Notes under the pieces: generated by a model
Seen by the model: the letters and a program-made list of their open reading frames with translations, nothing else
The model's database searches: none
What the model was told of the DNA's origin: nothing
Shown: positions 7,818 to 28,892 of the stretch, piece after piece
How positions within the stretch are numbered: position 1 is the stretch's first letter
Layout of the letters: every line of letters begins with the position of its first letter
Assembly (NCBI GenBank): GCA_934476235.1
Contig: CAKSNL010000001.1
Location: 44,497-108,496, forward strand
Reading direction: 5' to 3'
Length of the DNA: 64,000 nt
Source of the DNA: an uncultured Clostridia bacterium
Lineage (GTDB): Bacteria; Bacillota; Clostridia; CAKSNL01; HGM11501
Translations under genes and position numbers: made by a program

Positions 7818-9566
7818 TTAAGCCTTTTCTTTTGTGAACTTTTTGATGATGAGCAATGTAAGAACCATAAGCACAATGCTCAAAGGAAGCATGATGAATG
7901 CGTTCTGTATAAATCCCGCAGCGATGTAGCATACAAACGATACCGCGGCAACGGTTATCGCGTAAGGAAGCTGGGTCGTAACATGGTTTATGTGGTTTGA
8001 CTGGCTTCCCGCAGACGCCATTATCGTCGTATCGGATATGGGCGAGCAGTGGTCGCCGCAAACGGCACCCGCCATGCAAGCCGATATCGCAACAACGCAG
8101 ATTGAATTGTCAAGCGCGTTGTTTCCGAAAATTGCAAGAACGATGGGGATGAGAATTCCGAATGTTCCCCAGGATGTTCCGGTTGCAAACGCAAGACCGC
8201 ATGCGATTAAGAATACGATTGCCGGGAGCATTACGATTGCCGCGCCCGCGTAATTTCTTACAAACTCCGCTATAACGATCTTTGCGCCGAGACTGTCTGT
8301 CATCGTCTTAAGCGTCCACGCGCAGCCTAAGATCATGATAGCCGGAACCATTGCCTTAAAGCCCTCGGGAATCGACTCCATGCACTCTTTGAAGTTTAAC
8401 ACCTTTCTTAACATAAAGTAGATAACGCTGAAAATGAGACCGGCAAACGCGCCGCATACAAGACCGACAGATGCGTCCGCCTCAGAAAATGAAATAACGA
8501 AATCCCTGTAGCCGGCTTCTCCCGCGGTGAAGAATCCGCCGGAATAAATGAGCCCAAATATGCAGGCAATGATGAGCACGGCAACGGGAGCAACAAGGTC
8601 CCATACTATGCCGTTTTTGCCGTCGCCTGTGCTTTCAAGCGCCTTGAAAGCTTCCGCGTCGTCGGACGAGAAAAGATCGCCCGCCTCGGCATTTTCCTCA
8701 TGCTTTTTCATCGGTCCGTAATCGAACTTGCCCACTGCAAGAGTAATCATCATAGCAATGGTCAAAAACGCATAAAAGTTAAAAGGAATCGCCTTTATAA
8801 AGAGCGAAAAACCGTTCTGACCCTCGGGAACGAATCCGGCAACCGCAGCCGCCCAGGACGATATCGGCGCGATTATGCACACGGGAGCCGCCGTTGCGTC
8901 TATAATATAAGCGAGCTTTGCGCGCGAAATTTTGAACTTATCCGTTACCGGACGCATTACGGAGCCGACCGTCAGACAGTTAAAATAATCGTCAACAAAT
9001 ATCAGAACGCCGAGCGCTACGGTTGCAAGCTGAGCGCCGACCTTTGACTTTATGTGCTTCGACGCCCATCTTCCGAACGCCGCGGAGCCTCCCGCCTTGT
9101 TCATAAGCGCAACGATAGCACCCAAAACTATCAGGAAAAAGATTATTCCGATGTTATAGGAGTCCGCAACCGAAGCGATGAATCCGTCCGCAAAAAGATG
9201 GTCGATCGTGCCGGAAAAGCTTCCGCCGGCATAAAGCGCCGCGCCGGTTACAATTCCGATAAAGAGCGAGGAATACACCTCTTTTGTAATCAGGGCAAGC
9301 GCAATTGCGATGATGGGCGGCAAAAGCGCGAACCATGTCGCATAAAGCCCGATATCCTCCCTCGCGCCCGTGAGCGCTTTATCCAGATTTTCGTCGAAGT
9401 TTTCATCCTTGTCAACGTTTTCGGAATAATTGTCAATATATTCCCACGCGTCAAAATCATCTTCCGCCCCGTCATTCTCGGCTGCCACATTTGCGGCAAA
9501 CGAAAGCGCCAGAGAGAAAATGAGCATAAGACAAAGCAAAAGCTTCACATTCTTCATGTTTTTCAT
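7818..9566 (-). CDS. NhaC-family Na+/H+ antiporter with an N-terminal signal peptide and an acidic extension
   Basis: Roughly eleven hydrophobic segments typical of the NhaC family. An AAGGGGGAT RBS precedes the ATG at 9566. The N-terminus has a signal peptide plus a D/E-rich ~40-aa segment. Confidence 0.6.
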   Translation of the reverse strand: MKNMKNVKLLLCLMLIFSLALSFAANVAAENDGAEDDFDAWEYIDNYSENVDKDENFDENLDKALTGAREDIGLYATWFALLPPIIAIALALITKEVYSSLFIGIVTGAALYAGGSFSGTIDHLFADGFIASVADSYNIGIIFFLIVLGAIVALMNKAGGSAAFGRWASKHIKSKVGAQLATVALGVLIFVDDYFNCLTVGSVMRPVTDKFKISRAKLAYIIDATAAPVCIIAPISSWAAAVAGFVPEGQNGFSLFIKAIPFNFYAFLTIAMMITLAVGKFDYGPMKKHEENAEAGDLFSSDDAEAFKALESTGDGKNGIVWDLVAPVAVLIIACIFGLIYSGGFFTAGEAGYRDFVISFSEADASVGLVCGAFAGLIFSVIYFMLRKVLNFKECMESIPEGFKAMVPAIMILGCAWTLKTMTDSLGAKIVIAEFVRNYAGAAIVMLPAIVFLIACGLAFATGTSWGTFGILIPIVLAIFGNNALDNSICVVAISACMAGAVCGDHCSPISDTTIMASAGSQSNHINHVTTQLPYAITVAAVSFVCYIAAGFIQNAFIMLPLSIVLMVLTLLIIKKFTKEKA

Positions 9567-9904
9567 TTTTATCCCCCTTAAAATATTTTAAAATAAAATA
9601 AGCCATAGCCCGCAAAAAAGCCACAGCCAAAAATGATAGCACTCCGCCTTTTTGCGACAGTACAACGCATATTCTGCGCTGTCCCAACCTTAAAATACAA
9701 AGCAGGTATTAAAGGTTTCGGCGAAATCCCCTTTCAATCTCCGTTTTCTGCTTTAAATCTACGGAAAGCTACTTTTGTCATCCGCGCCTCTATCTTTTAT
9801 TTTTCCTTTATTTTACCACAACCGACATTTCCCGTCAAGCTTTTTATCGCGTTTTCGGAAATAATTTTTTTATCGGAATATGTCGGCAAACCTCAAGTTA
9901 ATGC

Positions 9905-10485: not shown

Positions 10486-11802
10486 ATGTATAACATCAAG
10501 GACTACGGAGCCAAAGAAGGCTCTCTTTCGACAAAAGCGATCCAGAGCGCAATCGACGCGGCGTATGAATCCGGCGGGGGAACCGTGTTCATTCCGGAAG
10601 GCACATTCATATCCGGCACTTTAATAATTAAAGACAATATTCACATTGTCTTTGAGAACGGAGCCGTGATTTTGGGCAGCGTCAACATGGAGGATTTTCT
10701 CCCCCGCGAGGAAAATCCCGACAACGATACATACCAGGATAAGAGCCACAGCTATTTTCACCACTCTTTGTTTTATGCCGATTCGTGCAGAAACATTTCG
10801 TTTTCCGGGCTCGGCAAAATTGACATGCAGTCGGTCTGGGAGCCGGACGGTTCATGGCAGAGAGCGGTTAAAATCTTCGCGCTTAAAAACTGCACCGACG
10901 TTGTGATAAAGGACCTTATTTTGCGCAACGCGACAGACCTTGCGGTTTATTTCGCCGGGTGCGAAAACGTTACGGTCACTCGCCTTAACATTTTAACGCA
11001 TATTGACGGGATAAGCCCCGATTCTTGCAAAAACGTTGTAATATCGGACTGCATTATAAATTCGGGGGATGACGGCATCGTCCCGAAAAGCTCCTTCACT
11101 CTGGGGCGCTTTGCGGCGATGGAAAACCTCACCATATCAAACTGCATAATCTCATCAAGATGCAACGCGATAAAATTCGGAACCGAATCCAACACCGCAT
11201 TTTTAAACGTCGCCATTACAGGCTGCACGATATATAACACAAGATTTTCGGGCATAACTCTTCAGGCGGTGGACGGAGCTTTGGTAAACGGCTTTTCCGT
11301 TTCCGGAGTCACCATGAAAAACGTCGGCAATCCCATAATGCTTATGGTGCTTGACAGAGGGCGGGCTCCCGAGGGCACTATAATCGGCGAGATCAAAAAC
11401 GTGTCGCTTGCGGGAATCACGGCAACCGGTCCTTACGAGCCGTGGGAGGCGCCGACCTGGAACTATAAATCACACATGGAGGACGATAAGGTTCAGCCTC
11501 CCGTTCCCGCTCCGGTCATCATCGCCGGTCAGCCGGACAGTATCATTAAAAACGTTTCTATGTCGGATATGATATTTTCAATGCCCGGCGGCGGAACGAA
11601 GGAGGACCGCGAAATAAAGCTTCCCACCGTGCGCGACGGATATCCCGAATCTATCCGGTTCGGGCGGAAAACCCCGTGCTACGGCATGATTGCGGTAAAC
11701 GTTGATAATTTAAGGCTTTATAACGTTGACTTTTCCACGGAAAAGGAGGACGCGCGCGATGAGGCGGTATTTATAAACGTCACACGCTACAAAAGAATAT
11801 AA
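10486..11802 (+). CDS. Glycoside hydrolase family 28 (polygalacturonase-like), no signal peptide
   Basis: N-terminus YNIKDYGAKEGS...GGGTVFIPEGTF and the beta-helix segment NCIISSRCNAIKFGTES are GH28 hallmarks. Confidence 0.75.
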   Translation: MYNIKDYGAKEGSLSTKAIQSAIDAAYESGGGTVFIPEGTFISGTLIIKDNIHIVFENGAVILGSVNMEDFLPREENPDNDTYQDKSHSYFHHSLFYADSCRNISFSGLGKIDMQSVWEPDGSWQRAVKIFALKNCTDVVIKDLILRNATDLAVYFAGCENVTVTRLNILTHIDGISPDSCKNVVISDCIINSGDDGIVPKSSFTLGRFAAMENLTISNCIISSRCNAIKFGTESNTAFLNVAITGCTIYNTRFSGITLQAVDGALVNGFSVSGVTMKNVGNPIMLMVLDRGRAPEGTIIGEIKNVSLAGITATGPYEPWEAPTWNYKSHMEDDKVQPPVPAPVIIAGQPDSIIKNVSMSDMIFSMPGGGTKEDREIKLPTVRDGYPESIRFGRKTPCYGMIAVNVDNLRLYNVDFSTEKEDARDEAVFINVTRYKRI

Positions 11803-11837
11803 AATAACGGCGGAGAATTTCTCCGCCGTTATTTTAC
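11803..11837. terminator. Bidirectional terminator hairpin (AATAACGGCGGAGAA/TTCTCCGCCGTTATT) between the convergent GH28 gene and the etf fusion gene
   Basis: Perfect 13-bp stem flanked by A and T runs. Confidence 0.75.
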
Positions 11838-13199
11838 TATGTCCCCGGCTTCGGCTATGATTCCGTAGTCCGAGTATTTAAAAATCGGAGCGTCTTTATC
11901 GGGGTTCACCGCAATAATTGTTCCCGCTCCCTCCACTGCGCACATGTGCTGAACCGCGCCGGAAATGCCGACGGCTATATATATCTTCGGCGCCGCCGTT
12001 TTCCCCGTGAGCCCTATCTGCTCTTCATAAGGCGCCATATCCATATCGACGGCGGCTCTTGACGCGCCCATCTGTGCGCCGAGCTTTTCTTTAAGTGCGC
12101 AAAGCTCTTTGTAATTTTCTGCCGCGCCGCGTCCCAAAGAAAGTATTATGTCCGCACTGTCGGACTCTGTTCTTACGGTCGCCATCTGCGGGTTCGTTCT
12201 GCACTCGATTTTTGCCGTAACGTCTCCGCCGAGCGCCGGGCGGTACATATAAAGCCTTTTTCCGTCCGTCTCAAGCGCCGTACAGTCCGCGCAAAGCCCC
12301 GTCTCAAGCATTGCCGCGGCAATCGGCGCGTCGCGCCGCGAGGTTAAGTCTGCGTTCCAGAGTATTACCTCCGGGCGCTCTTTTTTTGCCCGTTCGGCTA
12401 TTTTACGAGGGTCCTTTTCCTCGATAAATATGACGTTTTCGGCAATTGCAAGAGCCTGCTTGGAAACCTCTTTTCCTACCGCCCAGACCTCTTTTAATTT
12501 CTTCTTTGCCGGGGGGATATTTACCTCGATCCTCTTTTTCTTTGAAAGCTTTTCAACGAGCGGCAAAAATTCATCGGGCTTTATAAATTTGCACTTTCTT
12601 TCGCTCTCCTGCCTGTAAAAGGTTTTTATAACCTTTGTCGGCGAGCCCGAAAATCCGCATTTTTTCCCGTCCGCCGAAATATCATGGGCTCCGAGAACCG
12701 TTACGCTCCCCGCCTTCGAGCGAAAGCTCGGGAACCTTAAGTCAAACATTCTTTCGACAGTCACCAAAACCGGAGTTTTCGCCTTCATCTCTCCGAGCCT
12801 TGTTCTGCACGAAACCGTGCCGTTTTTTTCCGAGATATCCAAAGCGTACGCGATAACCGGAATCCCCAGCATTTCGGAAATGCACGGACCGACCTGTGCG
12901 GTGTCCGAATCGGTCGACTGCTTTCCGCAAAGAATAATATCATAATTTTCTCTTGCCAGCGCTTTTGATAAGACATATCCCGTCGCGAGCGTGTCGCTTC
13001 CGGCAAACGCCTTGTCGGTCAAAAGCACCGCACGGACGCCGAGCCTTGTAAGCTCTGTCAATTTGCTCTCAGCCGCGGCGGGCGCCATGGAATAGACCGT
13101 CACATCGTCGGACAGGCGGAGCGCCGCCTCTATCGCCGAGGAATCAAACGGGCTTATCTCGCCTTTAACGACCTTAACACATACCGCAATCTTCATCAT
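11829..13199 (-). CDS. Fused electron-transfer flavoprotein: EtfB-like N-terminal domain plus EtfA FAD-binding C-terminal domain in one polypeptide
   Basis: The N-terminal ~215 aa carry EtfB motifs (FAGSDTLATGYVL, ILCGKQSTDSDTAQVGP, GSPTKVIK). The C-terminal ~200 aa carry EtfA domain II motifs (ASRAAVD, PKIYIAVGISGAVQHMCAVEGAGTIIAVNPDKDAPIF). The ATG start overlaps the kinase stop as ATGA. Confidence 0.7.
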   Translation of the reverse strand: MMKIAVCVKVVKGEISPFDSSAIEAALRLSDDVTVYSMAPAAAESKLTELTRLGVRAVLLTDKAFAGSDTLATGYVLSKALARENYDIILCGKQSTDSDTAQVGPCISEMLGIPVIAYALDISEKNGTVSCRTRLGEMKAKTPVLVTVERMFDLRFPSFRSKAGSVTVLGAHDISADGKKCGFSGSPTKVIKTFYRQESERKCKFIKPDEFLPLVEKLSKKKRIEVNIPPAKKKLKEVWAVGKEVSKQALAIAENVIFIEEKDPRKIAERAKKERPEVILWNADLTSRRDAPIAAAMLETGLCADCTALETDGKRLYMYRPALGGDVTAKIECRTNPQMATVRTESDSADIILSLGRGAAENYKELCALKEKLGAQMGASRAAVDMDMAPYEEQIGLTGKTAAPKIYIAVGISGAVQHMCAVEGAGTIIAVNPDKDAPIFKYSDYGIIAEAGDIVK

Positions 13200-14668
13200 T
13201 CGCACCCGTGGTATATCGGCGCCAATGCGTCATGCACCTTTTTGTAGCGCTTATACTGCTCTTTATAGATTTCGTTATTCTTCATATCGGGCTCCGTCAC
13301 GAAAACCTCCTCGTTGCAGAATGACACCGCCTCGCACGGACTTAAGAAAAATCCCGCCGCAACGCCAGCCAGCATTGCGCTTCCGAATGACGAGTCGGAA
13401 TACTTTTTCCCGACGAGCGTTATGCCCAGCATATCCGCCGTGATTGAACGCCAGAGCGGGCTTTTTCCTCCGCCGCCGATTATTACCGCCGTTTCGTCAT
13501 GCGGAATACCGATTTTGCCGAGCGCGTCCATACAGTCCGCTATCGACATGGAAACGCCCTCCAAAAGCGCCCTCGTAAAATGCGCCTTCGTGTGGTTCGC
13601 GCGCACACCGATGAAGCTCGCCGATAAAAGCGGGTCGGCATACGGCGTCAGCTCTCCGTTAAGGTAGGGGTGAAACATCAGCCCCTCCGCTCCGGGCGCT
13701 ATTTTTTCCGCGCCTGAGTCAAGCGTCTTATAATCCTCCCCGAACGTGTCACGGTACCACCTGTAGGACGCGGCGCACGATTTTGTCGCCGTTCCGGGAT
13801 ACCACAGCCCGTCAATTATATGCGAATAGTTGATAAGGTTCTTATCGGGATACGACCTGTCCGTCACGACGCAGATGCGCCCGGCGGTCGCAAGCTTTAT
13901 TGTCATGTTTCCTTTTTTAACCGCGCCGGAGGCAAAAACCTCCATAACCGTGTCCGTCGTTCCGCATATTACCGCGGTGCCGGGATAAAGCCCCGTGTCC
14001 TTCGCCGCATTTTCCGTGACTGTGCCGACAACATCTTGAGGATTTACCGCCTCGGGCAATATCGCCTTGTCGATTCCCGCGGCAGCGCAAAGAACGTCCG
14101 ACCATTTCTTTTCGTTTAAGTCAAAGAGCATGCTGCCTTCCGCCTCTATATAATCCGTCACATAGTCACCGGTGAGGCAGTGGCGCACATAGTCCTTCGC
14201 AAAAAATATTTTTCTGATTTTACTAAAAATTCCGGGCTCGTTATTCTTTATCCAGAGAAGCTGCGGAAGCGTCCAGATGGTGTCAACATTATGAAGAGAG
14301 CGCTTTTTTATCTCCTCGCCGAGCGTTTCTTTAAGGCAGTCAACCTCTTTTTTGCTCCGCGTATCCGTCCAGTAAATCGAAGGCATGAGCACATTAAAAT
14401 CCTCATCCATTAACACTGCGGTATGCGTCGCCGCGTCAAGCGCAACCGCCTTTATATCGGCGGGGGAAACGCCGGAGGTCTTTATCACCGAGCGGATATT
14501 TTCCTTCGCAGCATTATACCAATCGTCCGGATTCTGCTCCACGTAGCCCGCCTTCGGGTAATATGTGGGATATTCGTACGACGCTTCCGCAACGATTTTT
14601 CCCTCTTCGGAAAGAAGCGTTGCCTTGGACGCGCCGCCGCCGAAATCTATACCGAGAGCATATCTCAT
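13196..14668 (-). CDS. FGGY-family carbohydrate kinase
   Basis: N-terminus YALGIDFGGGASKATL and a 490-aa length match the FGGY family. Confidence 0.8.
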   Translation of the reverse strand: MRYALGIDFGGGASKATLLSEEGKIVAEASYEYPTYYPKAGYVEQNPDDWYNAAKENIRSVIKTSGVSPADIKAVALDAATHTAVLMDEDFNVLMPSIYWTDTRSKKEVDCLKETLGEEIKKRSLHNVDTIWTLPQLLWIKNNEPGIFSKIRKIFFAKDYVRHCLTGDYVTDYIEAEGSMLFDLNEKKWSDVLCAAAGIDKAILPEAVNPQDVVGTVTENAAKDTGLYPGTAVICGTTDTVMEVFASGAVKKGNMTIKLATAGRICVVTDRSYPDKNLINYSHIIDGLWYPGTATKSCAASYRWYRDTFGEDYKTLDSGAEKIAPGAEGLMFHPYLNGELTPYADPLLSASFIGVRANHTKAHFTRALLEGVSMSIADCMDALGKIGIPHDETAVIIGGGGKSPLWRSITADMLGITLVGKKYSDSSFGSAMLAGVAAGFFLSPCEAVSFCNEEVFVTEPDMKNNEIYKEQYKRYKKVHDALAPIYHGCE

Positions 14669-14690: not shown

Positions 14691-14720
14691 AAAAAGCCCG
14701 GAATTGCTCCGGGCTTTTCA
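14691..14720 (-). terminator. Intra-operon hairpin (GCCCGGA...TCCGGGC) with a T-run on the minus strand, between the epimerase and kinase genes
   Basis: Inverted repeat flanked by A5 and T4-5. Possible partial terminator or attenuator inside the operon. Confidence 0.5.
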
Positions 14721-15590
14721 TTATTCTCCGAAGGTTATTTCGTGATAAAATTCCTTCGTCTTTCCTTTTTCCAATGCGGTTATCTCATCTTTTTCTTCTA
14801 TTTTGCCTGTCGAATCAACACTGTCGGGAAGTCCGCTCCACGGCTCGATACAGATATATCCGGCATCCGGGAACGACCAGATGACAAGATTCTTTTGCCC
14901 CGGGAACCGAACGCTCACTATCACTTCGCCGCTTTTATGCTTTAATGTGACAGACTCTGACAAAATGTCTTTAAATATCAGCGAATCTCTTTCTTTAAGC
15001 ATCCCGCCTGTTACCGAAAGCTCCTTCGTTCTCTCCGCCAAAAGCTCGCGCTTTCCGCTTAAGAGGGGACCTTCAAGCATATAATTAAAAAGCGTTTCTT
15101 CCTTTTCAAACTCAAAAACATAATCCTCTGTTTTTCCGGGGCAGGCATAACCTTCATGCGAGCCCGCCGAAAAATACATCGTCTTATCATCCTTGTTTTC
15201 CACACGGTATGTAACGCCGAGCGTATTGCCCGAAAGACTGTAAATGACCGAAAAGCCGTATAAGAACGGATAGCTTTCCTTGTACTTATCAAGACCCTTT
15301 GCACAAAATACAGCTTCGCTTTCGCTTATTTTTTCGGGCTCATAGTCCAAAAAACGCGCAAAGCCGTGCTTTGTCATTTCATAGCTTTTGCCGGACAGGG
15401 TGTATCTCCCGTCCTTTAACGCGCCGCAGACAGGGAAAACGATAGGTGCGTGAAAGCCCCAGACCGACTTATCGCCGCTCCACATATATTCTCTTCCCGT
15501 TTTGTCCGTCACGCTCGCAATTTCTGCGCCGAAATTTTTGATCTTAACTTTAAGGACTCCATTTTCGATTACGGTTATTTCGTCAGCCAT
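14721..15590 (-). CDS. Aldose 1-epimerase (mutarotase) family protein
   Basis: 289-aa product with the segment WSFPDAGYICIEPWSG, typical of the mutarotase family. A GAGGAGGA RBS lies upstream. Confidence 0.65.
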   Translation of the reverse strand: MADEITVIENGVLKVKIKNFGAEIASVTDKTGREYMWSGDKSVWGFHAPIVFPVCGALKDGRYTLSGKSYEMTKHGFARFLDYEPEKISESEAVFCAKGLDKYKESYPFLYGFSVIYSLSGNTLGVTYRVENKDDKTMYFSAGSHEGYACPGKTEDYVFEFEKEETLFNYMLEGPLLSGKRELLAERTKELSVTGGMLKERDSLIFKDILSESVTLKHKSGEVIVSVRFPGQKNLVIWSFPDAGYICIEPWSGLPDSVDSTGKIEEKDEITALEKGKTKEFYHEITFGE

Positions 15591-16363
15591 TTATGATCCT
15601 CCTCGGTAGTCATGAAAAATCCTCTGTTTTCGCCAGCCATTATCCAAAGGTAATAGTTGTTGTATCCGGGCGCCGCACAGCAGGGGTGATATCCTCTCGG
15701 AATCTCAACGAAATCGCCGCCGCGTACGGTATAGGTCTCGTCAATATCGCCCTCTTTTGTGTATACCTTCTGAATTCCGAAGCCCTGGGGCTTGTCGTAC
15801 TCATAATAGTAAACTTCCTCCAAAACGCCCTCTGTCGGCATATTGTCATCGTCATGCTTGTGAGGAGGATAGCTTGCCCACTGTCCGCCCTCGACATATG
15901 CCTCGCCGATGTAAATGAGGTTTGCCTTTACTCTCTCATCCAAAATAAAGTGCGCCTGTCTTCTCCAGCCGGGCTTGCCCATATCCTTGATTATCACGTC
16001 CTCGGGCTTAACCAAAACGGGCTCAAAGTCCTTCAGAGCGGGAGACTTGCAGACAGCGATCGTCACATCGCCCACACCGGTAACGGTGAACTTTCTGTTT
16101 CTCGGAACATAAAGGCAGGTTGCCGCTCCGTCAAAAGCGTTCTTTCTTTTGCCGATCTCGGTAAATTCAAACCCGTCGCCCTTGACCGTGCACTTTCCGC
16201 CGATAATTAAGAGTCCGTACTCTTTATCCTTTTCGGAATATGTTTTCGTTCCCCCGTCGGGAAGCTTTAACATATCGACCTCAATCATATTAAGCGATGA
16301 ATTTTCCTTAGTGATGACCGCGGCTTTGCCGTACTCATTTTTCCAGGTCTTCTTTAAATTCAT
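15575..16363 (-). CDS. iolB: 5-deoxy-glucuronate isomerase (KduI/IolB family, IolB-like)
   Basis: The C-terminal segment ASYPPHKHDDDNMPTEGVLEEVYYYE...GFGIQKVYT...IDETYTV closely resembles B. subtilis IolB. Confidence 0.8.
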   Translation of the reverse strand: MNLKKTWKNEYGKAAVITKENSSLNMIEVDMLKLPDGGTKTYSEKDKEYGLLIIGGKCTVKGDGFEFTEIGKRKNAFDGAATCLYVPRNRKFTVTGVGDVTIAVCKSPALKDFEPVLVKPEDVIIKDMGKPGWRRQAHFILDERVKANLIYIGEAYVEGGQWASYPPHKHDDDNMPTEGVLEEVYYYEYDKPQGFGIQKVYTKEGDIDETYTVRGGDFVEIPRGYHPCCAAPGYNNYYLWIMAGENRGFFMTTEEDHKWLTK

Positions 16364-17267
16364 TATAACCCAACTCCTTTAAAAATTCAATAACTTTTTT
16401 ATACTCGGGAACCGCGCTTCTCGCGCCGAGCTTTGTGCACTTAAGCGCAGATACGGCGCTTGAAAAAATGCAGCATTTATACATGTCAAACCCCTTCGCA
16501 AGTGCAAAGGCGAAAGCGCCGTGGAAAACATCGCCCGCGCCGTTGGAGTCAACGACCTCGGCGGGAAGCGCCGGGTATGACCTTACATTGTCGCCGTCAT
16601 ACATAATGCCGCCCTTTTTGCCCTGCGTTATGACAACTACTTCGGGGCGGTACGCCTCGTAAAGCGCCCTTGCCGCATCTTCCGCCGTTTCCTTTTTCGT
16701 AAATCCGAGTGCAAATTCCTCCGACGGAATCAAAATATCCGCATACTTTATTAAATTCTCCACGCCGTCATATAATCCTCCGGCGTCGTACAAAACCTTT
16801 GTACCGGACTCTTTTGCGAAACGGGCGCCCTCTGTCGCCGCGTCCATCTCATTGCCGTCTATCATTAATATGTCCGCCGCTTTTATTTCGTCCTTCTGCT
16901 CAGGAGAAAGCTTAAGCGGAGGAATATCGCCCCTGTAAAACACGCAGGTTCTCGTTTTCTCCTTTTCGCTTAAGAAAATGCACGAAGAAAACGACGAAAA
17001 TCCCGATGCGACATTGACCTTTGACGTGTCAACGCCGTACTTTTCCATATCGGCTTTTAAGAATATTCCCGGAGCATCCGTCGTCAGCGCTCCCAGATAC
17101 GACACATTTGCTCCGAGCTTTGCCGCCGCGACAAGACCCGTCGCGGTCGGTCCCCCTCCGGATGAAACGGCGCTCTTCGCGCGCTTTTTCGTGTCCTCAT
17201 CCGGGTACGAGTCAACGGTATAGAGCGTGTCATATACATTGGCGCCTATGCCTGTTATCCTCATCAT
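16335..17267 (-). CDS. PfkB-family sugar kinase (IolC-like 5-dehydro-2-deoxygluconokinase candidate)
   Basis: Ribokinase-fold motifs, including the NGAGD anion hole. Sits between iolB and the aldolase gene. Confidence 0.65.
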   Translation of the reverse strand: MMRITGIGANVYDTLYTVDSYPDEDTKKRAKSAVSSGGGPTATGLVAAAKLGANVSYLGALTTDAPGIFLKADMEKYGVDTSKVNVASGFSSFSSCIFLSEKEKTRTCVFYRGDIPPLKLSPEQKDEIKAADILMIDGNEMDAATEGARFAKESGTKVLYDAGGLYDGVENLIKYADILIPSEEFALGFTKKETAEDAARALYEAYRPEVVVITQGKKGGIMYDGDNVRSYPALPAEVVDSNGAGDVFHGAFAFALAKGFDMYKCCIFSSAVSALKCTKLGARSAVPEYKKVIEFLKELGYNEFKEDLEK

Positions 17268-18091
17268 GCCTTGTTTTCAGCTCCTAACAGTCTGATTTTC
17301 GACTTTGCAAATTCGCCCACATTTTTGATTGCATCCTTCATAAAGAGGTCGATGGCAATCTTTTCTCTCGAGGTCTCAAAAACCTTGTCAAGGAACGAAT
17401 AGCAAAGATCCGTGCCGAAGTTAATCTTTCTGATTCCGGCATTGACCGCCGCCTTTATCTGATCGTCCGGCACACCGCTTCCGCCGTGCAGTACAAGCGG
17501 AATTCCCGTAAGCTCTTTTATCTTCGAAATTCTCTCAATGTCAAGCTTGGGAGCCTTTTTATATCTTCCGTGAGCCGTGCCGACCAAGATTGCAAGCGCG
17601 CTGACGCCTGTCGCGTCAACATATGCCTTTGCCTCTCCGGGGTCGGTAAACTCCGCCATTGACTCGTCATTTACAGAGCCGATATGTCCCAGCTCGCCCT
17701 CGACCGGAACGCCGACGTGAGCGCAAAGCTCAGCCACGCGCGCGGTATAGCTCTTGTTTTCCTCAAACGGAAGGCTGGACGCGTCAATCATAATGCCGGT
17801 CGCGCCGTAGGTGAGCGCTCTTACGACCTCGTGCTCCGACGCGCCGTGGTCCAGGTGGAAGCAAACCGGAACCTTTGCCTTTTTTGCCGCCGCCAAAACT
17901 ATGGGAGCAAGGAAATATGCCTCTTCGTTTGTGAAAAGTCTTGAATAAGACTGTAATATTACCGGAGCGTTAAGCTCCTCCGCCGCGTTGATAACGCCCA
18001 TTACGGTCTCCATATTGTACACGTTGAATGCCGGGATCGCGAAATTTCCTTTTTCCGCGATGGCAAGTATCTCTTTAAGATTTACAAGCAT
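17264..18091 (-). CDS. Class II aldolase of the FbaA/GatY/IolJ family
   Basis: N-terminal segment IPAFNVYNMETVMGVINAAEE...PVILQ and an HLDHG metal site. Confidence 0.75.
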   Translation of the reverse strand: MLVNLKEILAIAEKGNFAIPAFNVYNMETVMGVINAAEELNAPVILQSYSRLFTNEEAYFLAPIVLAAAKKAKVPVCFHLDHGASEHEVVRALTYGATGIMIDASSLPFEENKSYTARVAELCAHVGVPVEGELGHIGSVNDESMAEFTDPGEAKAYVDATGVSALAILVGTAHGRYKKAPKLDIERISKIKELTGIPLVLHGGSGVPDDQIKAAVNAGIRKINFGTDLCYSFLDKVFETSREKIAIDLFMKDAIKNVGEFAKSKIRLLGAENKA

Positions 18092-19179
18092 TTTACAATT
18101 GCCTCCTCAAGTGTCAGAATTTCAATTCCCTTTTCTTTAAGCTCTTTTAATGCCAGATATTCCGCCGGAGACGCGGTAACAAGCTTCTTTGTGCCAACGT
18201 GAAGTGCGTCCGCCATTCTTCTTTTGGCAACAAGCTTCATAACGTCCGGCATATAAGCCTTCATTACGGGGTGTCCCGCAATCATCGTGTCGCGTCCGGT
18301 CATAAGCATCTCGCCGGTTTTTCCGAGCGCGGAAAGTATGCTTCTCGCCGGCTTTGTCTCCTCAAGGTCGCGCGCAAGATGTGCGGGATCCTGGAACACA
18401 AATTCGTCCTTCGTCTTTTTAACGCCGAGCTTTTTGCCGGAGATAAGCTCCGACAAAAACGCAGTATATGTAACGGGCTTTGCCGAAAGCGCGATGTTCC
18501 ACTCCTTGTATTCGCGCATGAACACCTTAGCGTCCGCCGGGTCGTATGCCACGATTTTTTTAGCGCCGGTGTTCTTTATTGCAGCCGCAGCCTTCTCCAT
18601 TGCCTCTCTGGTCTCAGCCGCCGCGCCCAAAAGGAAGTCATAAGCATATCCGGAGTCGGGCTCGTTCTTCATTACCGTGAAATCGACTCCCGCTTTCTTT
18701 AAGAGCTCAATTGCCTCTATTGCGTTAGCCGGAGCATTGCAGCGTGCGTCGCTTCCCAAAAAGAGGAGTACCTCCGCCTTCTCGGGAAGAGTCTCAATCT
18801 CGGCTTTAAGCTTCTTATCCAAAGTCTTTTTACCGTAAACGTTACCGGTCTTTTCAAGATTTGTGATGAGCTTTTCTATGTACTCGGGCATAACGCCGTC
18901 CATCGCCGCGGCAAGGCGTGCCTCCTTGGTGAATATAACGGGATCCCAGCCTGTCGCGCACTCCTTTGTGCATCCGCCGCAAAGCGCGCACTCGTATAAA
19001 TTGTCAACAACGTCGGAAAGCTTTGCCGAGTCTCTTACGACCATCGAAAGAGAAAGTGCTCTCGCTCTTGCCGTGTTTCTCTCCTGTCCCGTCGCGTTGC
19101 CGATGGGGCAAATATGGCGGCACATCCAGCAAAATCTGCATGCGTCAACCGTTTTTCTGCTTTTTTCAGATAACTGCAT
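18082..19179 (-). CDS. 4Fe-4S dicluster domain protein (GlcF/LutB-like electron-transfer subunit)
   Basis: Two CxxCxxCxxxCP motifs (CRFCWMCRHICP and CALCGGCTKEC) followed by a ~260-aa cysteine-poor domain. Confidence 0.6.
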   Translation of the reverse strand: MQLSEKSRKTVDACRFCWMCRHICPIGNATGQERNTARARALSLSMVVRDSAKLSDVVDNLYECALCGGCTKECATGWDPVIFTKEARLAAAMDGVMPEYIEKLITNLEKTGNVYGKKTLDKKLKAEIETLPEKAEVLLFLGSDARCNAPANAIEAIELLKKAGVDFTVMKNEPDSGYAYDFLLGAAAETREAMEKAAAAIKNTGAKKIVAYDPADAKVFMREYKEWNIALSAKPVTYTAFLSELISGKKLGVKKTKDEFVFQDPAHLARDLEETKPARSILSALGKTGEMLMTGRDTMIAGHPVMKAYMPDVMKLVAKRRMADALHVGTKKLVTASPAEYLALKELKEKGIEILTLEEAIVKCL

Positions 19180-19194: not shown

Positions 19195-20616
19195 TTATAA
19201 ACCGAGCTTGAACGGATTCATGATTCCGTTGGGATCAAGCTGTTTCTTAATTCCTTCAAATACCTGCATTGCGGGACCGTACTGCTCCTTCATGAGTCTG
19301 CCGAGCTTGATGCCGACGCCGTGGTGGTCGTTAACGACACCGCCGTTTGCGATAGCCGTGCGCACACCGCAGCTCCAGATAGCGTTATGAAGTCTTAACG
19401 CCTCGTGAGGATCTGCCGGAACATCGTCAACTATGAATCTGTCGTAAACCATTGCGCCCCACTCGTACCAGTGCGAGAAGTGAGCGATAAAGCGCGCCAT
19501 CGGGAAATTCTCCTCGATTGCCTTTTTCATTGCCCAGTATATTTTTTCAATCTTGTCGTAAGGAGCGATCGTATCCATGGTTCCGAACATCTGCGGAAGG
19601 TCCATCATATGACCGGGATAGAAGAATGTGATCTTCTCGTCCCACCACTTTTTACCGTACTCGCTGCCTAAGTCCTCTGCTCCGTACTTTTTAACGAAGG
19701 TATCCAAAAGAATCTTCTCTTCAACCGCGACAAGCTCGGAAACGCCCTCGATAGCCACGTTCATAAACGCGCCCTTCTTCTCAACGCCGACAATCTTTTT
19801 GATAAGCGTGGAGGTCTCCGCCTCGTCGTAAAGACGCATAACGGAGGGCTTGAACTTCTGGAGCAGCTCGCGCGCGCCGTTGAACGCGTCGCTCATATTC
19901 TTGAATAAGAATCCGCGGAAGCGTCTTTCCTCGGGCATATCGTAAATTCTCATCTGAGCCTTTGTGATAATACCGAGCGTGCCCTCGGAGCCGATGAATA
20001 TCTGGTTAAGGTCGGGACCTGCCGCATGCTTGGGAGCCGGCGATGTCTCGATAATGTCGCCGTTCGGGAGCACGACCTCCATTTGAAGCGTCATATCGTC
20101 AATCTTTCCGTATTTCGTGGAAACGACGCCGATACCTCTGTGAGCCAAAAAGCCGCCGACCGTTGAACATGTAAGTGAGCTGGGATAGTGCATCGTAGCA
20201 TATCCTCTTTCGTTTGCTGCCCATTCGATGTGCTTATAGATGGCGCCCGTTCCGCACTCTATGTACATTCCCTGTTCGTTGATGTCATAAATCTTATCCA
20301 TTCTCTTGGTATCCAATACGATACCGCCGCAAACGGGAATGGCGCCGCCCTGCGTTCCGCCGCCGCCGCCCCATGCGGTCACGGGAATCTTATAGTAGTT
20401 TGCAATCTTTAATACGTTGGAAACCTCTTTTGCGTCCTTGGGCGATACAATGATCGCTCCCTCGGGCATTCTCTCCCCGCGGTCAGCCCACATTCTTGAA
20501 AGCCAGAAGTAGTCCACGCTGTGAGATATCTTGTCTATCGTGCGTGTCGAGCAGTTTTCTCTGCCGACCGCGTCCTCAAGCTCGGACGCGATCATATCAA
20601 ATAAAAAATCGTTCAT
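19195..20616 (-). CDS. FAD-linked oxidase (GlcD / D-lactate dehydrogenase family)
   Basis: FAD_binding_4 type N-domain (WGGGGGTQGG) and an FAD-oxidase C-terminal domain ending HHGVGIKLG...MNPFKLG. Confidence 0.8.
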   Translation of the reverse strand: MNDFLFDMIASELEDAVGRENCSTRTIDKISHSVDYFWLSRMWADRGERMPEGAIIVSPKDAKEVSNVLKIANYYKIPVTAWGGGGGTQGGAIPVCGGIVLDTKRMDKIYDINEQGMYIECGTGAIYKHIEWAANERGYATMHYPSSLTCSTVGGFLAHRGIGVVSTKYGKIDDMTLQMEVVLPNGDIIETSPAPKHAAGPDLNQIFIGSEGTLGIITKAQMRIYDMPEERRFRGFLFKNMSDAFNGARELLQKFKPSVMRLYDEAETSTLIKKIVGVEKKGAFMNVAIEGVSELVAVEEKILLDTFVKKYGAEDLGSEYGKKWWDEKITFFYPGHMMDLPQMFGTMDTIAPYDKIEKIYWAMKKAIEENFPMARFIAHFSHWYEWGAMVYDRFIVDDVPADPHEALRLHNAIWSCGVRTAIANGGVVNDHHGVGIKLGRLMKEQYGPAMQVFEGIKKQLDPNGIMNPFKLGL

Positions 20617-20639: not shown

Positions 20640-22043
20640 TTATTCTTCGATCGGGTCAAATTCAAGACCCGGAATGAACTTGCAGAATTCCTTAAGCACA
20701 TCGGCATACGTTCCGTATATCTCGCTCATGTGGTGTATGTAAGGACCCTCGATGAGCTTTCTTTCAAGCTTTGAAAGATCGGAAAACTCAGCCCACATAT
20801 GCGTTCCGAAGGTGTGGGGTCCGTCCGTCGTCTTAAAGTTTCCGCCAAGAAGCGTGTAGCGCCCCGCCTCTCCCTGGAAGCGCGCGATGGTGTATTCTCC
20901 GTCCTTCGCTCTGAAGCTCGGCTTCGTGTTCCAAAGCTCCGCCTTCACGCCCTCTTTCTTAACCGAATACGGGAACGGACCGCAGTGCCACAAAAGCTCG
21001 GCGTTCTTATTTTCGGGATGGCGCACGGTGAATTCTCCGAAGGTCGGCGCGTCCTCTCCGCGTGCGGCGCACATTAATATCGCCTGGCTGATCGCGCCGT
21101 GAATGTCCGACTCACAGGCAACGATATAGCCCATATCATACAAAATGCTCATCGCAAGGCACGGATTTGCGCGGAACGCCAAGGGCATGCTCGTCCAGCA
21201 CTCGGAAGCCAGAACCGAGGCTTTCGTGTCGTTAAATATCTCAATATACGCATAAACGAACGTCAGCATTCTCTTAAGCGTTTCATCGTCAAGATTCTTA
21301 ACGTCGTAAAGCTCCTTTAAGCGCACAAGATCCTCCTTAAGCTCCTTTGCCTTTTCTTCGTAGAGCCTTTCGAGCTTTTTCTCCATAACCGTCATGTTAA
21401 CGGTGTTTAAGTTGATTCCGAACTTTTCGGTCAGCTCCAGCTCGTTTGACATAACGCTCTTGAACGGGTCAAGCCTCGTTCCGACCATGGTTACGCGCAA
21501 GGTCTTAAAGTTTTTGACCATTGTGGCAACCGACAAAAACTTTTTAACGCCGTCTGAGAAAACGCCGTCCGTCATGCGGCAGTTCTCAATGTAGGAAAAC
21601 GGCACCCCGAGGCGCTTTAACTGCTTGCTTATTGCAAAAAGTCCACACTGGCAGTCGGTGTATCTTCCGCCGTCCGGCTCAAACACATCGTCCAGCGGTC
21701 CCCACAAAAGAACCGGAACGCCCATAAGCTTTGCGACCTGACCCGCCGCCTCTTCGCTTCCGAAGTTGCAGTTGATTAAAAATACCGCGTCAACCCCCTC
21801 CGCTTTGAAACGCTCCGCAACGCGCGGCGCGTCATACGGGTCATACAAAAGCCCTTCTTCATTTAAAAATGCAAGATCCGTAAACTCCGTCTTGTCGTCG
21901 GAAAAGCTTTCCTTTATGTAAGGAAGTACTTTTTCCTTGTTTTCCCACGCCTTTTTCGGTTCAAATATTCCCTTTCTGGTCGCGGCGTCAGCCAAATGGC
22001 GGCGCATGGGAATAAGCCCGATTTTTAATTTATAGTCAAGCAT
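20640..22043 (-). CDS. L-fucose/L-arabinose isomerase family protein
   Basis: 467-aa product resembling the short fucose-isomerase-like family of Firmicutes. It is the first gene of the operon and has the RBS AAAGGAAAGAGGGAG. Confidence 0.5.
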   Translation of the reverse strand: MLDYKLKIGLIPMRRHLADAATRKGIFEPKKAWENKEKVLPYIKESFSDDKTEFTDLAFLNEEGLLYDPYDAPRVAERFKAEGVDAVFLINCNFGSEEAAGQVAKLMGVPVLLWGPLDDVFEPDGGRYTDCQCGLFAISKQLKRLGVPFSYIENCRMTDGVFSDGVKKFLSVATMVKNFKTLRVTMVGTRLDPFKSVMSNELELTEKFGINLNTVNMTVMEKKLERLYEEKAKELKEDLVRLKELYDVKNLDDETLKRMLTFVYAYIEIFNDTKASVLASECWTSMPLAFRANPCLAMSILYDMGYIVACESDIHGAISQAILMCAARGEDAPTFGEFTVRHPENKNAELLWHCGPFPYSVKKEGVKAELWNTKPSFRAKDGEYTIARFQGEAGRYTLLGGNFKTTDGPHTFGTHMWAEFSDLSKLERKLIEGPYIHHMSEIYGTYADVLKEFCKFIPGLEFDPIEE

Positions 22044-22273: not shown

Positions 22274-23110
22274 ATGGATAAAACTCTTTTGAAAATACAG
22301 GTTTTATATAACGATATGGGAAAGTCGGAAAAGAAGATTGCGGACTATATCCTATCAGACCCCGGCGCCCTCTTGCCCCTTTCCATAACGGATCTGGCGG
22401 ACAGGAGCAACAGCAGCGAGGCAACCATCGTGCGCTTTGCAAAAAGGCTCGGGCTCTCGGGCTATCAGGAGCTTAAGATAACGCTTGCCCAGGAAAGCGG
22501 AAAGGCGGCAAACACGCACGATATTGATATTGACGATTCGCTTTCCGAAATATATGACAAGGTCACGAGCGACATTTACCGTTCTCTTGAGATGACGAAA
22601 AAATCGCTTAGTCCCGAGGAGCTTACCGCCGCTGCCGAAGCGGTGCTCTCCGCCGGCAAGGTCGTCATCTTCGGTCTGGGCAATTCCGCCTCCGTCGCGG
22701 CGGACGCGGGGCACAAATTCTTCCGCGCCGGGATCGACGCGGCGGCGTATTCGGACAACCACATGCAGGCTATCGCCGCGTCGCACCTTAAAGAGGGGGA
22801 CGTTGCCATCGGCATATCTCATTCCGGTTCCTCGCGCGATATTGCGGACGCGTTAAAGATTGCGCGCGAGCATAACGCCAAAACTATCGCCATCACAAAC
22901 AAGGGCAGATCACCCGTCGCCGGAATGGCGGATTTAAAGCTTTTCACCGCGTCGCAGGAAACGGAGTATACTATTTTGGGCTTAAACTCCAGAATTGCCG
23001 CCCTCGCGATAATCGACACGATATATTCCTACATCGTGTGCCACAAAAAGGGTGACGCGCTCTCTGCCATAGCGAATGTGGAGGACGCGTTAAAGAGTAA
23101 GAAATATTAA
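22274..23110 (+). CDS. MurR/RpiR family transcriptional regulator (HTH plus SIS domain)
   Basis: N-terminal HTH (ATIVRFAKRLGLSGYQELK) and a C-terminal SIS sugar-phosphate-binding domain. Confidence 0.85.
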   Translation: MDKTLLKIQVLYNDMGKSEKKIADYILSDPGALLPLSITDLADRSNSSEATIVRFAKRLGLSGYQELKITLAQESGKAANTHDIDIDDSLSEIYDKVTSDIYRSLEMTKKSLSPEELTAAAEAVLSAGKVVIFGLGNSASVAADAGHKFFRAGIDAAAYSDNHMQAIAASHLKEGDVAIGISHSGSSRDIADALKIAREHNAKTIAITNKGRSPVAGMADLKLFTASQETEYTILGLNSRIAALAIIDTIYSYIVCHKKGDALSAIANVEDALKSKKY

Positions 23111-26883: not shown

Positions 26884-27840
26884 ATGTTAAAGAAAATATC
26901 CGAAATCGGCATTGTCCCGGTCATCAAGATTAATGACGCGGAAAAGGCAGTTCCGCTTGCAAAAGCGCTGATTGACGGCGGTCTCCCCATCGCGGAAATC
27001 ACGTTCCGTACGGACGCGGCGGAGGAGTCGATAAGACGTGTGAGCGCGGCATTCCCCGAAATGCTCGTCGGCGCCGGCACGGTACTGACCGTTGAGCAGG
27101 CAAAGCGCGCGAAGGACGCGGGCGCAAAATTCATCGTCAGCCCCGGCTTCAATCCCAAGGTCGTTTCCTGGTGCCTTGAAAATGACATTACTCCCACACC
27201 CGGCTGCACATCGCCCTCCGAGATCGAGGCGGCGCTTGAGCTCGGGCTTAAGGCGGTAAAGTTCTTCCCGGCTGAGCAGAGCGGCGGAATCGCAAAGATA
27301 AAGGCGCTCTCCGCTCCCTATTCCGGTCTTAAATTCATCCCGACCGGCGGAATAAGCCTTGACAATCTGACTTCATACATAACCAATAAAAAGATATTGG
27401 CATGCGGCGGAAGCTTCATGGTAAAGGAGGACTACATCAATAATTGTGAGTGGGACAAGATTACCGAGCTTACCAGAAAGTCGGTAAACGTTATGCTCGG
27501 GCTTGAGATAGGTCACATCGGCATTAACGCCCGGAGCAATTCCGAGGCTGAAAGCATTGCCGACCGTTTCTCGCTCCTTTTCGGAAACGCAGAAAAGAGA
27601 ACCACGTCCAAGAGCATATTCGCGGGCGACTCGATCGAGGTCATGCTCCCCGAAGGAAGAGGCAAAAACGGTCACATCGCTATTTTAACAAACTCGGTTG
27701 ACAGAGCGTGCTACCACCTCGGAAAGCAGGGCTTCTCGTTCGATACCGACAGTGCCAAATATAATGACGACGGCTCGCTCAAATTCATATACTTCAATGA
27801 TGAAATCGGCGGCTTCGGCGTTCACCTTGTTCAGAGATAA
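26884..27840 (+). CDS. eda: KDPG/KHG aldolase (Eda) fused to a C-terminal ~100-aa VOC/glyoxalase-like domain
   Basis: The first ~210 aa match KDPG aldolase (VIKINDAEKAVPLAKAL, GAGTVLT, FIVSPG). The tail HIGINARS...SIEVMLPEGRG...HIAILT resembles a VOC fold. Confidence 0.8.
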   Translation: MLKKISEIGIVPVIKINDAEKAVPLAKALIDGGLPIAEITFRTDAAEESIRRVSAAFPEMLVGAGTVLTVEQAKRAKDAGAKFIVSPGFNPKVVSWCLENDITPTPGCTSPSEIEAALELGLKAVKFFPAEQSGGIAKIKALSAPYSGLKFIPTGGISLDNLTSYITNKKILACGGSFMVKEDYINNCEWDKITELTRKSVNVMLGLEIGHIGINARSNSEAESIADRFSLLFGNAEKRTTSKSIFAGDSIEVMLPEGRGKNGHIAILTNSVDRACYHLGKQGFSFDTDSAKYNDDGSLKFIYFNDEIGGFGVHLVQR

Positions 27841-27863
27841 AATAAAGAGAGGAATCACATAAA

Positions 27864-28892
27864 ATGAAAAAGATAGTTACACTCGGCGAAATTATGCTTC
27901 GCTTAAAATCACCCGCATTCGAAAGATTCATGCAGACTCCGGCGCTTGAGGCGACCTTCGGAGGCGGAGAGGCTAACGTTGCCGTTTCGCTCGCAAATTA
28001 CGGAATGGATGCAAAATTCGTTACCGCGCTCCCGAAAAATGACATTGCGGACGCGCTTGTCCGCGAGCTCCGCGGCTTCGGAGTTGACGTGTCGGATATT
28101 GCATATACCGACGGAAGGCTCGGCATCTACTATCTTGAGTCGGGTACAAACCAGCGCCCCTCCAAGGTAATATATGACAGAGCATATTCCGCAATTTCGC
28201 TTGCGACTCCCGGGACCTTTGATTTTGGCAAGGTTTTCGAAGGTGCGGACTGGTTTCACATCACCGGCATCACCCCCGCTCTTTCCCAGAGTGCGGCTGA
28301 CCTTTCCATAGCGGCAGTCAAGGCGGCAAAGGAAATGGGGCTCACCGTCTCGTGCGACTTAAACTACAGAAAGAACCTCTGGAAGTACGGTAAAGAGGCG
28401 CGCGAGGTTATGAGCGAGATCGCACGCTATGTGGATGTACTCATCGCCAACGAGGAGGACTGCCAGAAGTCTCTCGGAATCGAGAACAACGCCGAGGTTA
28501 CAAGCGGAGTGCTTGATACCAAGAAATACGAGGAGCTTGCCAAGAACGTTCTTTCGGCATATCCCAACGCTTCGAAAATTGCAATCACTCTGCGTGAGAG
28601 CAAGAGCGCAAGCCACAACGACTGGTCCGCCTGCATCTCGGACGGCAAGGAGTTCTACGTTTCCAAGAAGTACGAAATCAAGAACATCGTTGACAGAGTC
28701 GGCGGCGGCGACAGCTTCGGCGCGGGTCTTATCTACGGTCTTTTAAATTACGGCGATGATAAGAAGGCGCTTGAATTCGCGGTTGCGGCAAGCTGCTTAA
28801 AGCACACCATCTCCGGCGACTTTAACCGTGTCAGCGTCAAAGAGGTTGAGTCTCTTATGGGAGGCGACGGCTCGGGAAGAGTTCAGAGATAA
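27864..28892 (+). CDS. kdgK: 2-dehydro-3-deoxygluconokinase (PfkB family)
   Basis: KdgK-like N-terminus ([12 protein letters not shown]) and a [10 protein letters not shown] anion-hole motif. Sits directly downstream of eda. Confidence 0.8.

Follow-up and report, generated by a model that had tools for sequence, protein, structure and literature searches.

Sulfolobus acidocaldarius encodes a characterized monomeric electron transfer flavoprotein (ETF), SaETF, which binds two flavin adenine dinucleotides (FAD) with bifurcating-type potentials (PMC12042025, JACS Au 2025) and whose fusion its authors termed an "expected discovery" (PMC12042025). Here we describe a compact fused Etf (cEtf) of 456 amino acids (aa), encoded in a 64,000-nucleotide stretch of an uncultured Clostridia bacterium (GenBank assembly GCA_934476235.1, contig CAKSNL010000001.1, positions 44,497 to 108,496), hereafter the window. 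Like SaETF, cEtf is a single polypeptide with EtfB followed by EtfA, is nearer in sequence to bifurcating than to canonical ETFs, and has three tethers from domain II to the base instead of two. SaETF is, however, full length (alignments reach residue 607), retaining the protrusion, all of domain I and a long linker, whereas cEtf carries five deletions. Homologues of SaETF adjoin acyl-CoA dehydrogenases, ETF-QO or FixCX (PMC12042025), while the cEtf family adjoins a YgcU-like flavoenzyme in a sugar operon; and SaETF is archaeal and characterized, whereas cEtf is clostridial and known here from its sequence.

The best sequence and fold matches of cEtf are the heterodimeric EtfABs of Acidaminococcus fermentans (4KPU) and Clostridioides difficile (5OL2), with which it shares the contacts of both FADs, the anchor of the NAD (nicotinamide adenine dinucleotide) site, the EtfA hairpin, the recognition loop and the EtfB arm. 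It differs from them in being one chain, in lacking the protrusion, strand 1 and helix 1 of domain I, EtfA residues ~162 to 203 and the C-terminal helix, and in having a partner, as judged from its gene neighborhood, that is not an acyl-CoA dehydrogenase. In the Ldh-EtfAB complex (LctBCD) of Acetobacterium woodii (7QH2, PMC9232219), a bifurcating-type ETF is encoded, as here, with a FAD dehydrogenase of the VAO/GlcD fold; the substrate of that dehydrogenase is too electropositive for NAD+, and an iron-sulfur (Fe-S) relay is needed for the low-potential branch. Unlike that system, the cEtf operon encodes a dehydrogenase of the YgcU/alkyl-dihydroxyacetone phosphate (DHAP) synthase branch rather than LctD, has its [4Fe-4S] centers in a protein of their own (365 aa), not in an N-terminal domain of EtfA, and has an Etf that is fused and trimmed.

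A third point of comparison is the ygc cluster of Escherichia coli (locus L113; K-12, NC_000913.3, 2892657-2903374), which comprises ygcN-O-P, ygcQ-R-S-U-W and yqcE-ygcE, transporters included, and likewise brings together the YgcU flavoenzyme, an FGGY kinase (ygcE), an Etf (ygcQR) and an Fe-S/FixCX-type acceptor (ygcNO). This parallel suggests, by analogy, that enzymes of the YgcU type depend on an ETF and act as dehydrogenases in a sugar pathway. The YgcQR Etf is nevertheless split and distant from cEtf (37% over domain II; 23% over part of EtfB), its acceptor is FixCX-like and therefore presumably quinone-linked, and the trio of IolB, PfkB and aldolase is absent from the E. coli cluster. 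Our literature searches found no paper on the function of the ygc genes and, for the operon and fused ETFs, no description of the compact Etf family or its pathway. The cEtf family sets itself apart from SaETF by a size reduction of ~25% through specific deletions of mobile elements, by forming a separate clostridial clade, and by a different client enzyme within an uncharacterized sugar cassette.

Domain organization of the compact fused Etf

A preliminary description, made from the sequence alone, had reported a single 456-aa open reading frame (ORF) in which EtfB signatures precede EtfA domain II signatures. Both the frame and this order are borne out, the order by Pfam, by alignments to Protein Data Bank (PDB) chains and by comparison with full-length fusions; the strand, absent from that description, is minus, and its two diagnostic strings, ASRAAVD (aa 379 to 385) and PKIYIAVGISGAVQH (aa 404 to 418), are both found in the product. 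The protein belongs to the ETF superfamily, exceeding the thresholds of both PF01012 ETF (E value 1.7e-41, 142.4 bits against a cut-off of 26.7, in two stretches) and PF00766 ETF_alpha (E value 5.4e-26, 90.8 bits against a cut-off of 27, at aa 348 to 422). The gene and its parts are as follows.

11829-13199, minus: cEtf ORF, uninterrupted, 456 aa plus stop
13196 (ATG; 455 aa, used in public gene calls) and 13205 (GTG), minus: alternative cEtf starts
12648-13199, minus: EtfB-like domain III core, aa 1-184, with nucleotide-phosphate loop GKQSTDSDTAQVGP and recognition loop DLRFPSFR; protrusion after strand 1 cut to ~5 residues
12543-12647, minus: GSPTKV anchor (NAD-site element of bifurcating EtfB) and EtfB arm, aa 185-219
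12498-12542, minus: linker joining the EtfB arm to EtfA domain I, aa 220-234 (15 aa)
12168-12497, minus: half-size EtfA domain I, aa 235-344, without strand 1, helix 1 and the terminal strands
12150-12167, minus: connector between domains I and II, aa 345-350, replacing ~45 residues of conventional EtfA (5ol2_A ~162-203)
11832-12149, minus: EtfA domain II with the putative electron-transferring (ET) FAD site, aa 351-456 (R381, Q394, T398, G399, H418)
11799-11837, minus: terminator hairpin with an 18-bp stem and T-run, overlapping the cEtf stop and shared with a convergent GH28 gene

Alignments to PDB chains with phmmer place aa 14 to 219 on 4kpu_B residues 33 to 252 of 263, covering the EtfB core, the GSPTxV anchor and the arm helix; aa 261 to 344 on the second half of EtfA domain I (5ol2_A 75 to 161, 7koe_B 83 to 165); and aa 342 to 453 on EtfA domain II (5ol2_A 204 to 313), so that the C-terminal half is EtfA-like. 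The remaining domain I retains TGLCADCT (301 to 307), the EtfA hairpin and YRPALGG (R320). A ligand-free AlphaFold2 (AF2) model built on 67 family members scored a predicted local distance difference test (pLDDT) of 91.1 and a predicted template modeling (pTM) score of 0.88, and has an arm with a short strand (204 to 205) and a helix (208 to 219), a five-strand/three-helix domain I at 235 to 342, a connector of 6 to 8 residues and a flavodoxin-like domain II. Foldseek gave the model a template modeling (TM) score of 0.71 to 4kpu_B and, on the EtfA side, 0.52 to 4kpu_A (B-like state) versus 0.32 to 5ol2_A (D state). As judged from sequence and model, all three ETF domains are present, namely the EtfB core and the attached arm, domain I at half its size, and domain II.

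The whole is ~25% smaller than a usual Etf. Alignment to full-length fusions of 595 to 617 aa resolves the ~150 absent residues into five discrete in-frame deletions, spread over both halves and common to the whole compact family. These remove ~20 aa directly after EtfB strand 1, corresponding to the "EtfB protrusion" as defined by Demmer et al. (PMC5691135); two trims of 4 to 5 aa elsewhere in EtfB, one right behind the recognition loop; strand 1 and helix 1 of EtfA domain I (~40 aa) plus ~12 aa further along; ~45 aa matching 5ol2_A 162 to 203, which form the end of domain I and the linker joining domain I to domain II; and the C-terminal helix. None of the compact family members aligned has the EtfB protrusion or the long flexible I-II linker of bifurcating ETFs.

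Two other accounts of the short chain can be weighed at this point. The preliminary description had the EtfB domain joined straight to EtfA domain II, without EtfA domain I or the EtfB C-terminal arm, and hence a single-FAD mini-Etf. The shortness of the chain and a Pfam summary that names just ETF and ETF_alpha would fit such a layout, but the second Pfam ETF stretch, the phmmer matches to EtfA 75 to 165 and the AF2 structure all reveal domain I at aa 235 to 344, while the 4kpu_B alignment extends far enough to include the arm, which the model also contains; on the strength of alignments and model we reject this architecture, which we regard as highly improbable. We give still less credence, practically none, to a sequencing or assembly frameshift that merged ordinary etfB and etfA genes, or to a decaying pseudogene. 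A product ~150 aa below the sum of EtfB and EtfA might raise that suspicion, but ORFs of 448 to 470 aa occur in at least 230 listed clusters at 90% identity from NCBI, ENA, JGI and Logan assemblies, the deletions are in frame and at identical positions family-wide, and the ratio of nonsynonymous to synonymous differences (pN/pS) is 0.22 against the orthologue at locus L007 (80% identical), which indicates purifying selection. With same-length homologues in independent assemblies, a confident single-chain model and a strong terminator 3' of the gene, these comparative data exclude both origins and agree with the earlier view of a real, cotranslated gene.

One argument for that view had been that the cEtf start overlaps the stop codon of the FGGY kinase gene upstream of it. 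ATGA is indeed formed, by the kinase TGA (13198-13196) and the first ATG (13199-13197); the public record identical to cEtf over its length (P0001, 100%, 455 aa) begins one codon downstream of this ATG and the family consensus N terminus is MKI, so the overlap may instead be TGATG. The two genes are coupled whichever start is used, and overlaps of 4 to 11 nucleotides (nt) between kinase and cEtf genes are also found at loci L002, L108, L109 and L112. At the other end, the strong terminator across the cEtf stop makes cEtf the last gene of its operon.

Flavin sites and the compact family

We assigned the ETF group from PDB relatives and published contact residues. In 4KPU, the bifurcating flavin is contacted by the EtfA L127 and A129 backbone, C128 and R146 and by the EtfB T94 backbone, and the ET-flavin by R253, Q266, S270, G271 and H290 (PMC10279923). 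The counterparts in cEtf are L302, A304, C303, R320 and T70 for the former and R381, Q394, T398, G399 and H418 for the latter. An S-P-T anchor lies beside the NAD+ site, and its deletion uncouples Ldh-EtfAB (PMC9232219); in cEtf it corresponds to G185-S186-P187-T188-K-V190, with T188 and V190 invariant. Across 30 compact sequences, down to 34% identity, the contact residues of both flavins and the anchor are invariant or at least 90% conserved, and the part of domain I that survives is the flavin-contacting half. The loop by which EtfB is anchored to its dehydrogenase (A. woodii 185 to 193, TPRLPSYKR; PMC9232219) reads DLRFPSFR in cEtf, where R155 and P157 are nearly invariant in the family.

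Similarity scores point the same way. The EtfB half of cEtf scores 76 to 107 bits against bifurcating EtfBs versus 28 to 37 bits against canonical EtfBs that bind adenosine monophosphate (AMP). The EtfA half scores 91 to 126 bits against bifurcating EtfAs, in two stretches (four of five at 120 to 126; LctC at 91), versus 64 to 102 bits against canonical EtfAs, in domain II only. Among PDB relatives, the domain I stretch matches bifurcating EtfAs only, and the best relatives overall are all bifurcating ETFs. Given the conserved contacts of both flavins and this closer match, two FAD sites are most probably kept, and cEtf is most likely a two-FAD, group-2-type ETF. The preliminary description had proposed that fusion could alter bifurcating versus nonbifurcating behavior; the question is apt, and by residue conservation both flavin sites look intact.

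A first homologue search returned, among the matches listed, at least 120 clusters of 448 to 470 aa at 57 to 100% identity, and a profile of divergent members added ~117 further listed clusters of 448 to 461 aa. Where names were given, these proteins were annotated as "FAD-binding protein" of Clostridia or Bacillota metagenome-assembled genomes (MAGs) or as "electron transfer flavoprotein alpha subunit." The best-scoring 150 clusters at 50% identity in an exhaustive search included ~35 compact sequences and ~100 full-length fusions of 550 to 700 aa, so the suggestion that fused or minimal Etfs are uncommon holds only in part. A genome scan recovered only five close compact relatives, all from uncultured Clostridia MAGs, and a metagenome scan with degenerate patterns from the family alignment found no compact Etf, with 29 of 29 checked matches being split etfB/etfA. 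In a rough neighbor-joining tree without bootstrap, which is only indicative and used split ETFs from the metagenome scan as outgroup, compact sequences formed one clade inside the bifurcating-type radiation, with full-length fusions and split pairs interspersed.

A second kind of short fused Etf (P0167, P0190 and P0222; 465 to 473 aa) keeps part of the protrusion and has other deletions. The rough tree makes it the sister group of the compact sequences, and it may represent an intermediate stage of size reduction.

The operon and its conserved cassette

The cEtf gene closes a minus-strand operon that runs from a 467-aa protein through the VAO-fold dehydrogenase, Fe-S protein, aldolase, PfkB kinase, IolB/KduI isomerase, epimerase-like protein and FGGY kinase to cEtf, with a regulator gene upstream that is divergent from it.

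22274-23110, plus: RpiR-family regulator (HTH_6 and SIS domains), divergent and conserved beside the cassette
20640-22043, minus: first operon gene, 467 aa, whose one match, to the L-fucose-isomerase C-terminal region, is weak; other loci may lack it or have it elsewhere
19195-20616, minus: VAO-fold FAD dehydrogenase, similar to YgcU and alkyl-DHAP synthase
18082-19179, minus: Fe-S protein of 365 aa, similar to GlcF/GlpC/HdrD
17264-18091, minus: class II ketose-bisphosphate aldolase
16335-17267, minus: PfkB kinase
15575-16363, minus: IolB/KduI isomerase
14721-15590, minus: aldose-epimerase-like gene
13196-14668, minus: FGGY-family sugar kinase (XylB model, 388.8 bits against a cut-off of 380), stop overlapping the cEtf start

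The same cassette (RpiR, YgcU-like flavoenzyme, Fe-S protein, IolB, FGGY, PfkB and class II aldolase) is present at all 16 loci with a compact Etf, and the dehydrogenase and Fe-S genes lie in the operon at each of the 10 loci with enough upstream sequence. It is kept even at loci where the gene order is rearranged and the cEtf homologue is just 37 to 48% identical to the window protein. No acyl-CoA dehydrogenase, ETF-QO or FixCX was found in the neighborhoods of the 16 loci.

Over its full length, the dehydrogenase is homologous to E. coli YgcU (31% identity, E value 4e-59, 190 bits). Otherwise it is nearest to alkyl-DHAP synthase (1e-38, 136 bits), with an alignment through the whole C-terminal domain that includes HFSHWY/HISHTY and DHHGVG/HHHGVG, and it is more distant from D-lactate dehydrogenases (~1e-31) and LctD (3e-27, 99 bits). 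Its identity across all loci is 83 to 99.8%, and it remains 83 to 85% identical at loci where the other cassette proteins fall to 34 to 63% (L002, L005, L108-L112). With a pN/pS of 0.010 at ordinary synonymous divergence, its constraint is exceptionally strong for a catabolic enzyme. Recombination was considered as a source of this near-identity and rejected, as synonymous divergence (pS) is alike across the operon (0.30 to 0.61). The accompanying Fe-S protein has two conserved CxxCxxCxxxC motifs, making eight N-terminal cysteines, and a CCG-like C-terminal region of 290 aa with no conserved cysteine; the loss of these C-terminal cluster cysteines makes it look like a pure electron-wire or scaffold subunit.

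Compared with the NCBIfam models for the lower myo-inositol pathway (IolB, IolC and IolJ), IolB scores 257.5 bits against an equivalog cut-off of 205; the PfkB kinase reaches 106.8 bits against the IolC cut-off of 300, and the aldolase is nearest to fructose/tagatose-bisphosphate aldolases and falls below the IolJ model. We weighed an IolBCJ-type lower inositol route, a tagatose-6-phosphate route and polyol-phosphate oxidation, and none could be established.

Within the operon, the epimerase-like and FGGY genes are separated by 52 nt that contain a palindromic hairpin with a perfect 11-bp stem (14692-14718; AAAAGCCCGG...CCGGGCTTTT); this hairpin may act as an attenuator inside the operon or as a site of RNA processing. 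At loci L005/L006, L110 and L112 the cassette is followed by Amidohydro_1 (NagA-like), GlcNAc 2-epimerase, GH20 or GH123 hexosaminidases and ABC sugar transporters, a setting that hints at a connection with the use of amino sugars or host glycans; in the window, the GH28 gene takes this neighboring place.

Elsewhere in the window, the region 23626-26472 (minus) encodes a 948-aa secreted protein with an obvious internal duplication. Its gene adjoins a pair similar to 2-keto-3-deoxy-6-phosphogluconate (KDPG) aldolase and KdgK (26884-28892, plus), which is a conventional 2-keto-3-deoxygluconate route separate from the cEtf cassette. A lysine riboswitch (RF00168, 103 bits; 9629-9800, minus) lies upstream of a Na+/H+-antiporter-family transporter gene (7818-9566, minus).

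Proposed function of the compact Etf

We propose that cEtf is probably a functional, naturally size-reduced single-chain ETF with two flavins (bifurcating, group 2), which acts as dedicated carrier for the co-encoded flavoenzyme and likely works by confurcation. That a YgcU-type flavoenzyme, an Etf and an FGGY kinase recur together suggests that the flavoenzyme is an ETF-dependent dehydrogenase acting on the kinase product or a related sugar, and the dehydrogenase is the presumed electron donor to cEtf. In the mechanism we envisage, the FGGY kinase and the dehydrogenase would activate and oxidize a sugar or polyol (phosphate); electrons would leave the dehydrogenase flavin for the domain II ET-FAD, either straight or with the 2x[4Fe-4S] protein as a relay, and go on to the second FAD and to NAD+. 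By analogy with Ldh-EtfAB, a low-potential input, from the Fe-S protein or from ferredoxin feeding in by way of it, would cover the cost of the uphill step. Confurcation appears the most likely mode because these Clostridia presumably lack a quinone sink and because alcohol/ketone couples of this kind sit above NAD+/NADH. The protrusion of Ldh-EtfAB shields the second flavin (PMC9232219), and with the protrusion gone in cEtf the second FAD may be open to docking by the Fe-S protein. A "static wire," in which the Fe-S protein would replace docking of the Etf base to the dehydrogenase, is weakened by retention of the EtfB recognition loop.

Several observations weigh against this proposal. Variants of the protrusion and the I-II linker (T18, P40 and R255) impair C. 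difficile EtfAB and have been tied to the domain II swing and bifurcation (PMC5691135), so a protein without these elements may not bifurcate, or may gate differently, and the three short tethers may keep domain II from rotating by ~80 degrees. The cEtf chain carries no Fe-S motif or ferredoxin domain. Its cofactor content is read from conserved residues in a ligand-free model, whose sole poor region (pLDDT below 50) is the phosphate loop at aa 95 to 100. Only their gene neighborhood joins cEtf and the dehydrogenase as partners, and cEtf is the fastest-evolving, least constrained gene of the operon while the flavoenzyme is nearly invariant, a pairing unusual for tight, coevolving complexes.

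Given these points, we also considered a two-FAD but nonbifurcating NADH-linked module that works without ferredoxin, like the Etf of Clostridium propionicum acryloyl-CoA reductase, and that would wire NADH to the YgcU-like flavoenzyme in the reductive direction, or the flavoenzyme to NAD+ if its couple is low enough. Among NCBIfam models, cEtf does score best with the Etf subunits of acryloyl-CoA reductase (127.8 and 96.8 bits, neither score coming near its cut-off), the putative bifurcation-gating elements, protrusion and long linker, are deleted, and nonbifurcating EtfABs closely related to bifurcating ones exist (PMC9232219). Such a module would nevertheless leave the ever co-encoded 2x[4Fe-4S] protein in need of a role, and where the C. 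propionicum type is said to bear an insertion that blocks ferredoxin binding (PMC9232219), removal of the protrusion should expose rather than block the second FAD; we therefore consider this rather unlikely. A canonical one-FAD ETF with AMP in its EtfB part, shuttling electrons from the flavoenzyme to the Fe-S protein and on to some acceptor, seems to us more doubtful still. It would parallel the E. coli ygc cluster, which couples the same kind of flavoenzyme to a FixCX-like acceptor, and the Fe-S protein does resemble GlcF and GlpC, acceptors of flavin dehydrogenases. The second-flavin lining (GLCADCT and RPAxGG) is, however, invariant in an otherwise halved domain I, the EtfB half scores far higher against bifurcating EtfBs than against AMP-binding ones, and the CCG-type cluster cysteines are absent from the Fe-S protein.

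If cEtf is the two-flavin carrier we propose, we would tentatively go further, in a direction that is possible but doubtful: that a minimized single-chain ETF still bifurcates or confurcates without the protrusion or long linker, its gating being simpler than in current models or performed by the 2x[4Fe-4S] protein, and that it serves the YgcU family, which would then be a new class of sugar(-phosphate) dehydrogenases that depend on an ETF, in a widespread gut-clostridial pathway. The compact Etf amounts to a natural deletion experiment on models of flavin-based bifurcation, in which the proposed guides of the 80-degree swing are gone and both pockets appear to be kept, and its activity, or lack of it, would test these models directly. 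At 456 aa in a single chain it would be the smallest two-flavin ETF scaffold, and monomeric bifurcating ETFs are of interest for devices (PMC12042025). Were cEtf a plain one-FAD carrier, the finding would shrink to an unusual domain arrangement. More broadly, cEtf points to a new ETF client, the YgcU/alkyl-DHAP-synthase-like flavoenzymes, and to a pathway for a sugar or polyol, highly conserved and frequent in gut Clostridia, to which some of the y-genes of E. coli form a counterpart; if the bifurcating, YgcU-serving role is correct, it would provide the first functional handle on the orphan ygc cluster.

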